A stretch of DNA of 64,000 bases from an uncultured Clostridia bacterium (lineage in GTDB: Bacteria; Bacillota; Clostridia; TANB77; CAG-508), in contig CALXET010000002.1 of the NCBI GenBank assembly GCA_944387405.1, forward strand, positions 129,316 to 193,315. The letters are read 5' to 3'. The position numbers and the translations under genes were made by a program. Below are positions 57,166 through 60,516 of this stretch, piece by piece. The notes under the pieces were generated by a model. The model was given only the letters and a program-made list of their open reading frames with translations, did no database searches and had not been told where the DNA came from. How positions within the stretch are numbered: the first letter of the stretch is position 1; every line of letters begins with the position of its first letter.

Positions 57166-60100
57166 TTAATATTTATTTCTCATTTGATTTAATGTATTGT
57201 TCATTTCGTCAGAAAAATTACTTCTTGTGTAATCTGGTCCTGACTTAATATAAGTTTGCTTACTTAATAAAGGATACACCATATTACCTAAAATTTTCAA
57301 GCTATTCATAAAACTTTTTGAATATCCACTTATACTTACATTACAATTTACTAATGTCTCTAGGTATTTAGAATAAGTTGAATCTTCAAAAGGAAGAGTA
57401 CAAGCTTTTATTTTATCCTTATTAAATAATTCTGTCATATATGACATACTAGGATCATTATAGAAAGACATTCCTCCTATAATTGTTTTAGATGTAAGTC
57501 CTCTAACCTTAATTTCTTTATTTACAACTACTCTTAATTTTTCTTGATCTAATATTCCATTTGTTTTTAGCTCTCTTAAGAAAGCTGTAAGTGGTTGTAT
57601 TGTCAATATATCCATTGATTGAACTAAATATATTTCTTGTGCATTAGCAAAATATCCAAATGGTGTATCAAAATCACAATCTATTAATACAAGTGAATAA
57701 TTTCTTGCAAGTGTTGTAAGAATAGCTTCTGCATTTGAAAAATCTTTTTCTTCACTTGGAACTGCTGTATAAACATCTAAATTTCTATCAACCTTAATTC
57801 CTTCTGCTACACCATTTTCTAATTTATCAATTGCATCATAAGAAATCTGTCTTAAATTTTCATCATTATTTGTATAGATATAATATGCATTTCTATTCTT
57901 AGTCATATCTAGTATTGCAGTTTTTACACCAATTGATGAAAATAAACTTGCTAAATTATTTACTATAAATGATGTACCATTTTTACTCGTTCCAATAAAT
58001 GCCGCAACTTTCTTGTCTCTTGTAAGTACACTTTCTAAAGATCCTGTTGAATAAACTCTCTTTTCTTCTAACTTTCTTATTCCTTCATTTCTTTCAATAT
58101 CATTGCTTCTATAAGCTGTTGCTGAAGATACAGCAGCTGTTGTAATCTCATCTGCAGAATTCTCTTCAAACCCTGGTAATGTAGGGCCTTTTGCATCTTT
58201 AACTTGACTTGTTGGTGTATAACTTTGATTATTTGCTGAAGGATTTATTTGATTGTTAAACTCTACTTTATTATAATCTTCTTCAAATCCTGGAAGTTCA
58301 ACACTATCTTTTCTTACAGGTTCTACTTTGTTTTCTTCTTCATTATTTTGTTCTAAATATGAATCTAAATCCATTCCAGGTAAAGTTATATTATCATCAG
58401 TATTACTGTTTTGTAAATTATCTATATTTTCCTGTTGTTCATTATTAACATTCTGATTTAAATTTATATCTGTGTTTGTATTTAAATTTGCATCATTGCT
58501 ACTTGTAGCATTATACGTATTATTTTGTTCTACACGAGATACATTATTTACATTAGAATTTGAAGTAGTCTCACTATTTCCAAAATTCATAAAATCAGCA
58601 TCAAGTGGTGTGCCTTGTGATGTATGTGGTAAATCAATATCTTCAAACTCATCATCTTCAAATCCTGGTAATGTTGTAGCTGTATTGCTTGTATTATTAT
58701 TATTATTATTATTATTATTATTATTATTATCTACTACATTACTTTGCTGTATGCTTGAAGTATCTTCTTTCTGAGTAATTTTACCTTCAGGTGATTCAAA
58801 AGTATCAAAAGAGCTAAAGTCTTCTGATATGTTTTCATTCTCAAAACCAGGTAATGTTGTAGCAACTTCTTGAGATGGATTTTCTACCTCTAAATCTTCA
58901 AATCCTGGTAATGTAACTGATTGTGTTTCTTGAACAGTCTCATTATTAACTTCAACATTTGTCTTATTATCTTGCTCTTCTGGTAAAGGATTTTTTCTAG
59001 GTCTTCCTCTTTTTCCTTTTGGTTTTGGATTAGGATCAATTGGATACTTTCTAGGTCTTCCTCTTCCTTTCTTAACTGGTTCTTCTGGAACAGTTTCAGT
59101 TTTAATTTCTTTACTTACTGTATCTATATTATTGTTAGGAGTATTAGTAGTATTTTCTGCTTGTTGAATATTATTTACTGGCACATTGTTTGCTTGTGTC
59201 ATAGCTGCTACATTATTAGCCACTACTACTTCTTCTTTTTCAATAGGTTGTACATTTGTATCTAAATCTTCAAATCCTGGAAGAGTAACTGTCTCTTCAA
59301 CTTTTTCTTGTTGAGGCTGCATATTTTGAGTATTTTGTGCTTTTGGAGCCTCTTGTGTATTTTGAACAACTTCTGTTCTTTGTTCTGGAATATTTTGAGG
59401 CTTAACTTGTTGTACTTGCTGAATTTGATTTGCTTGTTGTACATTTACATTTTGAACAGTATTTATACTTTCAGGTCTTATTGTTCTTGAAGATTCCATA
59501 TTCATTTCCTCATCTGATAACACTCTTCTTGCATTTTTTGTGTTAATCGCATTTGGAATTAATACATCTCCTTGAATACCAGGTCTATTCATTTTTCTAT
59601 CTATTAAATCTATTCCTATTGGTTGTTGCTCTTGTCTTTTTGCAGATTTACTTTCAGCATTAGGAACATATCCAGCTTTCTTCTGCTCCTTTTCAGCCTT
59701 TTCTTGTTCTTTTTTCTTTTGTTCATATTGTTCTTTTATTTTTTCTTCATATTCTTCTTTTTCTTTTAATTTTTGTTCTTGTAATCTTTCTTTTTCCTTT
59801 TGCTCTCTTATTTTGTCCCTATCACTTGCATAAGTAACAAGCTCTTGATATTTTGGACATTCAGCTTCTAATACTGCTTTTACGTTTATTGGTAAATATC
59901 TAATAATTATTTTAAGCTGTGCATCTGTATATTGTGAAGCTATATTATTAAAGCTATCTGTAAATCTTTCTTCATTTTTTCCTAACTTTTTATAATAGCT
60001 AACAATATTTTGAACTTCTTCCTCACTTACATCTTCTAAACTAGATTTTGTATCTCCCGCATTTTCTAGTTTATAATATTGCATAGCCTCTTCCTTTGTA

Positions 60101-60516
60101 CGAGGAACATTAATTAATTTACAAACATTATCTATCCTTCTATCTGAACCAATTAATGCATCATAAATACCAATATTATATAATTTATGAATCATTGAAC
60201 TAGACTTAGTCCTTCTATCTGTACAAATTAATATAATTGGTATTTTACTATCTGCAAAATCATTTATTTCTTCTGAAATTGATTCTAATCTTTCAAATAT
60301 AAATTTATCTATTGCATCATAATTATTATTTGCAAATGGCTCTAAATCTTCACTAATAATAATTCTATCATAAGTTCTATCTCTCTGAATTTCTTTGATT
60401 ATTGCATTAAAGTAAAATACATTTTTAAAAGTTATAGTATCACTATAATTTTTGTGATAACTTTTAACTATTGCATCTGAAACATTCTCATTACTTACTG
60501 CAAATAAAATCCTCAT
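57166..60516 (-). CDS. 1116-aa multidomain protein: REC-like N-terminus, low-complexity Q/N-rich region with two AT-hooks, seven TLPGFE(D/E) repeats, a poly-Asn tract, and a C-terminal ParA/MinD-like ATPase-fold domain
   Basis: N-terminus MRILFAVSNE...IIISEDL...IPIILICTDR (CheY-like fold, no obvious phospho-Asp); GRGRPRK and KRGRPRKNP AT-hooks; C-terminus KKVAAFIGTSKNGTSFIV...LVLIDCDFD resembling deviant Walker A/B of CpaE/MinD-like proteins. Confidence 0.65.
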   Translation of the reverse strand: MRILFAVSNENVSDAIVKSYHKNYSDTITFKNVFYFNAIIKEIQRDRTYDRIIISEDLEPFANNNYDAIDKFIFERLESISEEINDFADSKIPIILICTDRRTKSSSMIHKLYNIGIYDALIGSDRRIDNVCKLINVPRTKEEAMQYYKLENAGDTKSSLEDVSEEEVQNIVSYYKKLGKNEERFTDSFNNIASQYTDAQLKIIIRYLPINVKAVLEAECPKYQELVTYASDRDKIREQKEKERLQEQKLKEKEEYEEKIKEQYEQKKKEQEKAEKEQKKAGYVPNAESKSAKRQEQQPIGIDLIDRKMNRPGIQGDVLIPNAINTKNARRVLSDEEMNMESSRTIRPESINTVQNVNVQQANQIQQVQQVKPQNIPEQRTEVVQNTQEAPKAQNTQNMQPQQEKVEETVTLPGFEDLDTNVQPIEKEEVVVANNVAAMTQANNVPVNNIQQAENTTNTPNNNIDTVSKEIKTETVPEEPVKKGRGRPRKYPIDPNPKPKGKRGRPRKNPLPEEQDNKTNVEVNNETVQETQSVTLPGFEDLEVENPSQEVATTLPGFENENISEDFSSFDTFESPEGKITQKEDTSSIQQSNVVDNNNNNNNNNNNNTSNTATTLPGFEDDEFEDIDLPHTSQGTPLDADFMNFGNSETTSNSNVNNVSRVEQNNTYNATSSNDANLNTNTDINLNQNVNNEQQENIDNLQNSNTDDNITLPGMDLDSYLEQNNEEENKVEPVRKDSVELPGFEEDYNKVEFNNQINPSANNQSYTPTSQVKDAKGPTLPGFEENSADEITTAAVSSATAYRSNDIERNEGIRKLEEKRVYSTGSLESVLTRDKKVAAFIGTSKNGTSFIVNNLASLFSSIGVKTAILDMTKNRNAYYIYTNNDENLRQISYDAIDKLENGVAEGIKVDRNLDVYTAVPSEEKDFSNAEAILTTLARNYSLVLIDCDFDTPFGYFANAQEIYLVQSMDILTIQPLTAFLRELKTNGILDQEKLRVVVNKEIKVRGLTSKTIIGGMSFYNDPSMSYMTELFNKDKIKACTLPFEDSTYSKYLETLVNCNVSISGYSKSFMNSLKILGNMVYPLLSKQTYIKSGPDYTRSNFSDEMNNTLNQMRNKY
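58692..58730. repeat. (ATT)13 / (AAT)13 trinucleotide microsatellite encoding the poly-Asn tract
   Basis: Perfect run attattatt... inside the 57166-60516 CDS, in frame. Confidence 0.85.

Follow-up and report, generated by a model that had tools for sequence, protein, structure and literature searches.

We analyzed a stretch of 64,000 nucleotides (the window) from an uncultured Clostridia bacterium (contig CALXET010000002.1, positions 129,316 to 193,315 of the forward strand), in which a long open reading frame (ORF) on the minus strand, here called BIG, encodes a protein of 1116 residues. ParA/MinD proteins are the main spatial organizers of bacterial cells, and BIG belongs to an uncharacterized, abundant branch of this superfamily whose linker features are unusual. 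The folds of its two ends, the residue substitutions, the conservation of its motifs and the synteny of its gene are established here. In its presumed working BIG comes closest to TadZ/CpaE, and in structure to MinD/FlhG; on present evidence it does not represent a new principle. We tentatively favor, at somewhat less than even confidence, the reading that it is a weakly hydrolyzing or non-hydrolyzing scaffold of the TadZ/CpaE kind, which would link an envelope module to the membrane and, in the clade that includes BIG, to AT-rich DNA. The gene and its folded parts are:

57166..60516, minus strand: BIG, whole ORF, ATG start, 1116 residues; pseudo-receiver and helical bundle, linker, MinD-fold domain.
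60112..60516, minus strand: receiver (CheY-like) fold with degenerate active site, residues 1-135; AlphaFold2 (AF2) predicted local distance difference test (pLDDT) about 95, five beta-alpha units, Foldseek matches to REC.
59821..60039, minus strand: five-helix bundle joined to the receiver, residues 160-232, conserved, acidic to neutral; AF2 helices 165-232, pLDDT 80-91.
57262..58029, minus strand: MinD/ParA-fold (SIMIBI) domain, residues 830-1085; AF2 and Foldseek.
57970..57993, minus strand: P-loop-like GTSKNGTS, residues 842-849; placed by family alignment and by hhalign to E. coli MinD.
57169..57219, minus strand: conserved C-terminal amphipathic helix NFSDEMNNTLNQMRNKY, residues 1100-1116, behind a low-confidence tether of about 20 residues.

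The start codon agrees with the starts of orthologues (MKVLFAV...), and a sequence search found a protein 99% identical to BIG already on record. Neither the whole protein nor either end taken singly matched Pfam, NCBIfam or PDB sequences. Family profiles searched against PDB sequences returned low-complexity noise, the sole other match being a weak one to the CapA/CapB tyrosine kinase (E 0.05), and BIG and its neighbors gave no defense-system match in PADLOC. An earlier reading of this DNA from its letters alone (the sequence-only reading) knew of no characterized protein with this domain combination, and that still holds: we know of no characterized family member, the family and the domain combination are described nowhere in the profile libraries, structure databases and papers searched, and the literature searched held nothing relevant on a combination of AT-hook and ParA/MinD domain in bacteria.

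Models of both ends of the protein were built in AF2 with diverse family alignments. The last 310 residues were modeled as alternating strands and helices with a mean pLDDT of 90.6 and a predicted template modeling score (pTM) of 0.84. In the PDB, Foldseek found 312 structures similar to this model at E <= 0.001. At the head of the list stood MinD of Aquifex (4v02, E 6.5e-9), a ParA-type protein of Borrelia (5tvk), a Chlorobium ParA-family ATPase (3ea0) and FlhG (4rz3); MinD of E. coli and of Pyrococcus, FleN, Soj and NifH were among the others. The top matches had E values from 6.5e-9 to 1e-6, template modeling (TM) scores of 0.55-0.73, identities of 12-17% and a probability of 1.0. Member by member, Pfam CbiA (the CobQ/CobB/MinD/ParA nucleotide-binding domain) was weakly matched in 20 of 52 proteins (best E 1.1e-5) and MipZ, also weakly, in 8 of the 52; the remote homology is therefore faintly visible in sequence too. 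BIG itself scored 13.6 bits against CbiA, below the cut-off of 25.4.

The nucleotide-binding loop of this domain is unusual. Between beta1 and alpha1 it reads G-T-S-K-N-G-T-S-F, and in all 133 representatives of the family the loop follows the pattern G-x-x-(K)-x-G-[TVIN]-[ST]-F, with GK[ST] in none of them; the deviant Walker A pattern KGGxxGK[ST] does not occur in BIG. Alignments made with hhalign to E. coli MinD and B. subtilis Soj were short and of low probability and served for residue register only, a use we made of them because they were consistent with the register of the predicted secondary structure. Against MinD, G847-T848-S849 lies opposite G15-K16-T17 and AILD870-M-T872 opposite VVID38-F-D40; against Soj, ILDMT lies opposite VDIDP and LVLID946C opposite YIIIDC. 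The position of the Walker Lys (MinD K16) is thus taken by Thr848, that of the signature Lys (K11), counted through the P-loop in the hhalign register, by Thr843 (Ala in some members), and that of the catalytic Asp (D40 of MinD and Soj) by Thr872, a nearly invariant Thr, as placed by the low-probability alignments to both templates. The P-loop glycines, S849 as the [ST] magnesium ligand, the switch-I residue D870 and the Walker-B residue D946 are kept and invariant, and Lys845, at loop position 4, is nearly invariant in the family. BIG most likely lacks a fast ATPase cycle; it may nevertheless bind nucleotide and dimerize, for which E. rectale TadZ offers a precedent. No bona fide MinD/ParA gene was found in the 64-kb window.

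At the other end, the first 235 residues were modeled with a pLDDT of 89 as a five-stranded beta/alpha domain of receiver type followed by a five-helix bundle. Foldseek matched this model to receiver domains at probability 1.0 (ComE, XynC, DesR, Rcp1 and the CpaE receiver); the CpaE receiver (4n0p) superposed with a TM score of 0.69 and a root-mean-square deviation (rmsd) of 3.7 A. The longest alignments, of about 240 columns, were to full-length NarL-family regulators (VraR, LiaR, RcsB, NarL), with rmsd values of 10-17 A. The acid pair between beta1 and alpha1 is replaced by S8-N9-E10, the acceptor position at the end of beta3 reads Ser55-Glu56, and G123-S124 stands in place of the Lys after beta5. 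Because the acid pair, the acceptor Asp and the Lys are all replaced, the domain is a pseudo-receiver by its residues and is predicted not to be phosphorylatable on Asp, a difference from response regulators, which carry the phospho-acceptor. Glu56, at or next to the acceptor site, is invariant across 57 diverse members, and T99 is conserved in the clade of BIG only. The helical bundle is not basic, and in ten diverse N-terminal regions it matched no consistent Pfam family and no helix-turn-helix family. A Sigma70_r4 match in 1 of 52 members was dropped, as it could not be placed on the bundle.

These results bear out most of what the sequence-only reading had drawn from this ORF. Translation and a regular-expression scan recovered the reading frame with its GTSKNGTS loop, two AT-hooks and poly-Asn run; the REC-like N-terminus and the ParA/MinD-like C-terminus are both supported by the models and the Foldseek matches, and with them the proposed CpaE/TadZ-type layout split by a long low-complexity region. 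The P-loop had rightly been called deviant, with the addition that both lysines are replaced and that the catalytic Asp, the loss of which had gone unremarked, is replaced as well.

The protein ends on a short helix. In the model of the last 310 residues it spans 297-309 of the model and follows a stretch with pLDDT below 50; the BIG helix is polar, with a mean hydrophobicity of -0.4 and a hydrophobic moment of 0.39. The C-termini of basal members carry a tail of the form K/R-K/R-G-h-F-G (KKRRGIFG, KGKGLFG, KGMKKFFG), which we take to resemble MinD membrane-targeting sequences. Among the 133 representatives 87 have the helix, 79 of them alone and 8 together with the tail, while 18 have only the tail and 28 have neither. 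In the eight with both, the tail is followed by the helix FSxxMNxTLNxM[KR]xxY, which is the ending of BIG itself, so that these few tandem members illustrate the replacement of one C-terminal element by the other. The tail-bearing basal members include P0241, P0242, P0266 and P0251 among others, and P0174, P0177 and P0208 were noted with the members that end on the tail.

Between the two ends lies a linker of about 570 residues, in which N, E and Q are the commonest residues. Its features, all on the minus strand, are:

59662..59820: Lys/Glu-rich segment, residues 233-285, recognized by composition; DNA repeats of period 24/30 at 59699-59778.
59512..59619: linear motif GIDLxDxK...V(L/I)IPxxIxT(K/R)N...SDEE, residues 300-335, conserved in the clade.
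59260..59292: LPGFE motif 1, TVTLPGFEDLD, residues 409-419 (scan).
59047..59070: AT-hook 1, KGRGRPRK, residues 483-490 (regular-expression scan).
58993..59019: AT-hook 2, KGKRGRPRK, residues 500-508 (regular-expression scan).
58888..58920: LPGFE motif 2, SVTLPGFEDLE (scan).
58831..58863: LPGFE motif 3, ATTLPGFENEN (scan).
58693..58731: poly-Asn run, D-N12 (scan).
58648..58680: LPGFE motif 4, ATTLPGFEDDE (scan).
58360..58392: LPGMD motif 5, NITLPGMDLDS (scan).
58273..58305: LPGFE motif 6, SVELPGFEEDY (scan).
58156..58188: LPGFE motif 7, GPTLPGFEENS (scan).

A regular-expression scan placed LPG[FM][ED] at residues 412, 536, 555, 616, 712, 741 and 780, so that the seven TLPGFE-type motifs of the sequence-only reading stand as six LPGFE and one LPGMD. 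When the linker was shuffled 20,000 times the pattern appeared in 6 shuffles and never more than once in each; seven copies are therefore not an effect of composition. An origin by tandem repetition was rejected, since the copies show no DNA repeats and differ in their codons. Aligned, the motifs give a conserved logo, acidic-acidic-[TS]-[TSIV]-L-P-G-[FLM]-[DE]-[DE]-acidic. No second LPGF[ED]-bearing protein, which might have been a clue to a common receptor, was found in the window, and a role as a ClpP-docking (IGF-like), clamp-binding or FtsZ-tail-like motif was considered and is supported by no test. Both AT-hooks, GRGRPRK and KRGRPRK, have the defining core R-G-R-P with basic flanks; RGRPRK is invariant in 18 aligned members, and Pfam AT_hook (PF02178) was matched in 11 of 52 members (best E 3.8e-5). 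The Lys/Glu-rich segment probably forms a single long helix or coiled coil, judging from its composition. The motif at residues 300-335, for which we found no known counterpart, is 38-91% identical within the clade against as little as about 10% in its flanks, and its V318 and P321 are invariant in clade A1. The poly-Asn run, encoded by an (AAT)13 array at 58692-58730, is not conserved in orthologues.

The sequence-only reading had allowed that this low-complexity region might be strain-specific junk, and comparison with relatives speaks against that. The folded ends of relatives are 64-97% identical to BIG and two stretches of the linker 6-49%, with many insertions and deletions, while the island holding the AT-hooks keeps 79-100% identity in 15 of 17 relatives; the exceptions, P0008 and P0009, both have extra hooks inserted. 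Among more divergent relatives this island is better conserved than the folded domains, and the LPGFE motifs too are kept in the clade. The pattern is, as far as alignments can tell, the signature of short linear motifs under selection inside a disordered spacer. Of 83 related loci, 69 hold both domains in a single intact ORF; the gene runs into a contig end in 13 of the remaining 14, and there is no sign of frameshifts or decay.

The family is large. A whole-protein search returned thousands of 90%-identity clusters, the best 120 of which are 855-1191 residues long, have no Pfam domain and bear the sole name 'hypothetical protein [Clostridia bacterium]'. With the C-terminal domain as query, an exhaustive phmmer search of 1.84 billion representatives (50% clusters) gave 354 matches at E <= 0.001 and 259 at E <= 1e-10, and the best 150 of the 354 were all family members; a total this small suggests that the family is closed and not merely the margin of the far larger ParA/MinD family. 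When genomes were scanned at one per species, the family turned up in at least 262 GTDB species, all of them uncultured Clostridia known as metagenome-assembled genomes from animal and human guts, including 'Candidatus Scatovivens', and one carrier is the closed 1.8 Mb chromosome OZ006973.1. All loci lie at 24-32% GC and the window at 27%; a correlation between AT-hooks and genome GC was sought and none was found. Architecture was counted in 77 full-length representatives at 50% identity. The order of pseudo-receiver and bundle, linker and MinD-fold domain is constant in all 77, with total lengths of 553-1434 residues and linkers of 58-856. At least one AT-hook is present in 47 of them and at least two in 42; LPG[FLMIV][DEN] occurs at least once in 26 and at least three times in 14. 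Deep-branching members have neither AT-hooks nor LPGFE motifs; their linker consists of a long series of helical repeats of the QRQAEIARQ type, and an element of the 'KKGLFGFRK' type directly follows their N-terminal module.

BIG stands in a cluster of genes in constant order. The genes follow one another along a single strand, in 79 species-level loci, as peptidoglycan hydrolase, membrane protein, BIG, GGDEF-like protein, IreB, RuvX and DUF1292. In the window the neighbors and the sites that bracket the cluster, all on the minus strand, are:

62521..62549: sigma-70-like promoter match TTGACA-17-TAAAAT, the best match, upstream of the hydrolase gene.
61231..62502: peptidoglycan hydrolase with transmembrane or signal anchor, G5, SH3_3 and glucosaminidase (Pfam 1.7e-13, 2.5e-10 and 3.6e-8).
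60544..61032: small membrane protein, 162 residues, with a signal-peptide-like N-terminus, a variable ectodomain and a conserved two-helix C-terminal membrane hairpin.
56053..57138: transmembrane protein with a catalytically dead GGDEF domain (MGPKF); one N-terminal hydrophobic segment, Pfam GGDEF E 4.5e-9.
55787-56038: IreB, annotated in homologous loci.
55356-55736: RuvX, annotated in homologous loci.
54926-55246: DUF1292, by Pfam and annotated in homologous loci.
54860..54891: terminator-like hairpin and T-run just past DUF1292, the sole one on the minus strand.

Both bracketing sites are consensus matches only, and for the promoter the regional count of matches was not above that of shuffled sequence. 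The gaps are short, 27 nucleotides on each side of BIG and 14 before IreB. The hydrolase, which matches the NCBIfam peptidoglycan hydrolase at 1.1e-26, is present in 56 of the 79 loci, and the small membrane protein and the GGDEF-like gene each adjoin BIG in 72. IreB, RuvX and DUF1292 (54926..56038, co-directional) are syntenic in 67-70 of the loci and present in three of four deep-branching relatives. The sequence-only reading had described the signal-peptide membrane protein, the glucosaminidase-type hydrolase and the neighbor with a membrane segment and dead GGDEF domain much as we find them. In the last of these, MGPKF aligns to the GGEEF of a solved cyclase and FRIMNI to IDIDKF, other residues stand in place of the metal-binding Asp residues and an RxxD I-site is lacking; the middle part of the protein, which the sequence-only reading had called GAF-like, had no match in Pfam. 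The link to cyclic di-GMP (c-di-GMP) that had also been suggested is weak, with the GGDEF domain dead and its gene found, among the four deep-branching relatives, in L082 and not in L080, L081 or L083.

A homologue of the small membrane protein, by contrast, lies directly upstream in all four deep-branching loci (alignment; E 3e-20 for one pair), and because the GGDEF-like gene is found in one of these only, the constant partner of BIG is the membrane hairpin protein, a point that had escaped the sequence-only reading. Its family numbers 3,764 clusters, about the size of the BIG family, all 'hypothetical'. The wall-protein family farther upstream varies: a glucosaminidase, a Peptidase_S11 carboxypeptidase (upstream of the membrane protein in two deep-branching loci) or Cu_amine_oxidN1 (two proteins close upstream in two deep-branching loci). 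A constant membrane protein together with a wall enzyme of varying family is the pattern expected of functional linkage and not of inherited gene order.

Several other genes accompany the cluster. A divergent gene at 62641-63492 on the plus strand encodes a 283-residue protein with one N-terminal transmembrane segment and no Pfam match, and stands beside the hydrolase in 47 of the 79 loci. Downstream of DUF1292, a 236-residue protein (53916-54626, minus strand) had no match in Pfam, NCBIfam or PADLOC, and the 156-residue membrane protein beside it (53266-53736, minus strand) is kept after DUF1292 in 52 of the 79 loci. The AMP-binding gene at the end of the window (63508-63999) is 89% identical to that of L003, a locus in which a filament set (two T2SSE genes, T2SSF, then a ROK kinase gene) occupies L003:89-3772; by synteny such a set would lie just past window position 64000. 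In the deep-branching L083 (noted at L083:13313-14507) a SepF-YggT-DivIVA division cluster stands about 3 kb downstream of the BIG homologue, and IreB-RuvX-DUF1292 is missing there.

Among known systems the closest in plan are E. rectale TadZ (PDB 3FKQ) and C. crescentus CpaE. These share with BIG an N-terminal atypical receiver stripped of its active site, a C-terminal MinD/ParA fold and a C-terminal amphipathic element, in BIG a polar one, and a role as scaffold or localization factor, not motor, is presumed for them as for BIG. According to PMC13170226, CpaE combines REC and MinD-like domains with an amphipathic helix at its C-terminus that binds the membrane. In the parts of PMC10482377 and PMC13170226 that cite Xu et al. 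2012, E. rectale TadZ is described as having lost both canonical lysines yet binding ATP, dimerizing and retaining low activity, with a lysine of a neighboring helix said to compensate. BIG differs in that its domains are split by the long linker, whereas those of TadZ/CpaE are contiguous, and in its extra helical bundle after the receiver, its AT-hooks and its LPGFE motifs. Moreover, no tad/cpa/flp, TadA/CpaF or TadB/C genes occur in the window or in the conserved operon (79+4 loci), where the constant company is the small membrane protein and cell-wall enzymes. No sequence similarity between BIG and TadZ was detectable (no Pfam match), and 3FKQ was not among the top 50 fold matches.

The best structural matches are instead to MinD, FlhG and FleN, with which basal members also share the K/R-rich G-h-F-G tail of MinD type; from these BIG is set apart by the replacement of signature Lys, Walker Lys and catalytic Asp, by the absence of MinC, MinE and FlhF partners and by its large N-terminal extension. 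BcsQ, which we take to have an atypical Walker A motif, with key lysines lost or relocated and ATP binding and dimerization kept, would be a precedent alongside McdA. Relocated lysines are described for the ParA/MinD superfamily, including McdA, which also keeps ATP binding and dimerization (review PMC11407121). The partners and cargo of these two proteins are different, and neither has a receiver, an AT-hook or a long cis linker. As a functional analogue, B. subtilis Noc combines DNA binding and a membrane amphipathic helix in one protein, as BIG may do; it is a site-specific ParB-family CTPase and not homologous to BIG. The hooks resemble those of HMGA1/2 and Myxococcus CarD in their R-G-R-P core, K/R flanks and following Pro (KRGRGRPRKYP), and those of the HMGA type in being tandem, about 10 residues apart, in a disordered acidic region; they differ in being bacterial and fused to a MinD-fold domain, and their DNA binding is predicted from the motif.

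From these likenesses a working model can be sketched, in which binding of BIG to membrane and DNA and its link to cell-wall remodeling are what we infer by analogy. The receiver-like module would offer a surface for protein binding or oligomerization, and the MinD-fold domain would bind nucleotide and dimerize with little or no turnover, making BIG a nucleotide-stabilized dimeric scaffold on the cytoplasmic face of the membrane, kept there by its terminal amphipathic elements. The operon suggests that the cargo is an envelope module made up of the membrane hairpin protein and a secreted or anchored peptidoglycan enzyme; together with the small membrane protein, BIG might place or regulate an extracellular peptidoglycan-remodeling enzyme, here the G5-SH3 glucosaminidase. 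The linker would serve as a flexible, fast-evolving spacer between the two ends. In the BIG clade this spacer has gained two AT-hooks that would bind the minor groove of the AT-rich chromosome and, in a genome of 27% GC, would find sites almost anywhere on the nucleoid, as well as multivalent acidic [TS]-x-L-P-G-[FLM]-[DE]-[DE] motifs that would recruit a partner or the folded domains of BIG itself. With hooks and recruiting motifs in one linker, BIG could tie the nucleoid to a place in the envelope, for instance the septum, and may thus belong to a positioning or septation module, as the sequence-only reading had proposed.

Several observations weigh against this scaffold model. BIG is without a clear tail of MinD type, and the polar helix of its clade may have a protein and not lipid as its target. 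True ATPase activity might be regained through the conserved Lys845. With only about 10 residues in its cytoplasmic loop, the membrane protein would have little surface to offer for interaction, and IreB, RuvX and DUF1292 may adjoin the gene merely as part of the chromosomal backbone. AT-hooks are lacking in about 40% of full-length representatives and LPGFE motifs in about 65%; DNA binding therefore cannot be the core function of the family. No characterized homologue is known, and every step of the function proposed rests on analogy and gene neighborhood.

A bolder version, which we consider doubtful, would make BIG a self-contained 'cis' hub that positions nucleoid against membrane and licenses an extracellular peptidoglycan hydrolase by chromosome position. 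The MinD fold would there be a dimerization module, DNA binding would be outsourced to AT-hooks of eukaryotic type and partner recruitment to acidic LPGFE stickers in the disordered linker, possibly in a condensate-like state, and through the membrane hairpin protein the hydrolase would be licensed only where and when the chromosome is rightly placed. If true, Gram-positive bacteria would have here a new way of making septal wall cleavage depend on where the chromosome lies.

The TadZ/CpaE-like domain plan and the lysine-less P-loop (PMC10482377) could also mean that BIG is the equivalent organizer of a type IV filament machine (PilB/PilT/PilC-type) encoded kilobases away, in the way that TadZ localizes Tad pili. 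Two T2SSE genes and a T2SSF gene do lie 4-9 kb upstream in the close relatives L003, L005, L008, L015, L032, L044 and L049, a T2SSF gene only in L010 and L033 and one T2SSE ATPase gene in the deep-branching L080 (L080:564-1778), and the AMP-binding gene in which the window breaks off is the one that stands between the two clusters in L003. However, a ROK kinase gene and two genes of opposite strand stand between the pilus genes and the operon, the filament genes are absent from the available upstream flank of most other loci (for example L016, L026, L061, L067, L071, L073 and L076), the 64-kb window has no tad or pil gene, and the invariant neighbors are a non-pilin membrane protein and cell-wall enzymes, which makes us regard this role as unlikely. 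A working ParA/MinD-type ATPase that patterns on the nucleoid through its AT-hooks, for division-site positioning or segregation in place of MinD, Noc or Soj, seems to us improbable as well; in it the hooks would take over the non-specific DNA binding that the dimer surface provides in ParA. The fold itself would suit it, as would the conserved Lys845 with the retained magnesium and phosphate ligands S849, D870 and D946, the existence of ParA/MinD members with relocated lysines (PMC11407121), the presence of AT-hooks in so AT-rich a genome and the SepF-YggT-DivIVA cluster about 3 kb downstream in one deep-branching relative. On the other side, the residue equivalent to D40 is Thr in nearly all members, no Walker Lys is found anywhere in the family, the hooks are missing from the share of full-length representatives given above, and no ParB-, MinE- or MinC-like gene is adjacent.

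We give considerably less credit to a DNA-binding regulator or nucleoid-associated protein, in which a degenerate NarL-like receiver and helix-turn-helix would act with the AT-hooks and pair with the GGDEF-like sensor in a c-di-GMP- or GTP-linked system. NarL-family proteins do provide the longest alignments to the N-terminal model, AT-hooks are present and the GGDEF-like gene is a frequent neighbor, but those alignments have the large rmsd values noted above, the bundle is not basic and shows no helix-turn-helix family in the ten diverse members, the GGDEF domain has lost its GGEEF motif, metal-binding residues and I-site and its gene is missing in most deep-branching relatives, and both the MinD-fold domain and the membrane partner would be left unexplained. 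That the ORF is an artifact of misassembly or fusion, or belongs to a gene in decay with a meaningless middle, is refuted by the comparative data and retains next to no probability: although the linker is of low complexity and many contigs break inside it, the 69 intact two-domain ORFs come from independent loci, the 99% identical protein has been recorded, all 77 full-length representatives share one domain order and the linker motifs are conserved.

Elsewhere in the window, an AAA_14 and DUF4143 ATPase (45112-46299, minus strand) matches the PADLOC candidate defense family PDC-S01 at E 9e-147, and a tRNA gene at 46618-46689 adjoins it. Between housekeeping genes and this tRNA, positions 40700-44600 hold short membrane-protein ORFs and apparent gene fragments, among them, by eye from the translations, a UvrA-like C-terminal piece (43747-44043) and a GNAT piece (41515-41685); the region looks like a variable island with decayed genes. 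A 6S RNA (22572-22762, minus strand; Rfam RF00013, 77 bits) lies between a radical-SAM gene and prmC/whiA.

The BIG family extends the ParA/MinD superfamily in several respects. It takes a TadZ-like pseudo-receiver plan outside pilus loci, it shows both lysines and the catalytic Asp wholly lost across hundreds of species, and it adds a long cis linker with multivalent short linear motifs and with AT-hooks, which are rare in bacteria. Its G-x-x-K-x-G-T-[ST] loop is a natural test case for the P-loop drift that is compatible with nucleotide binding. Uncultured gut Clostridia of humans and animals, with their reduced genomes, carry the family in abundance, and its strict linkage to a membrane protein and wall enzymes provides a testable handle on envelope organization in these bacteria.

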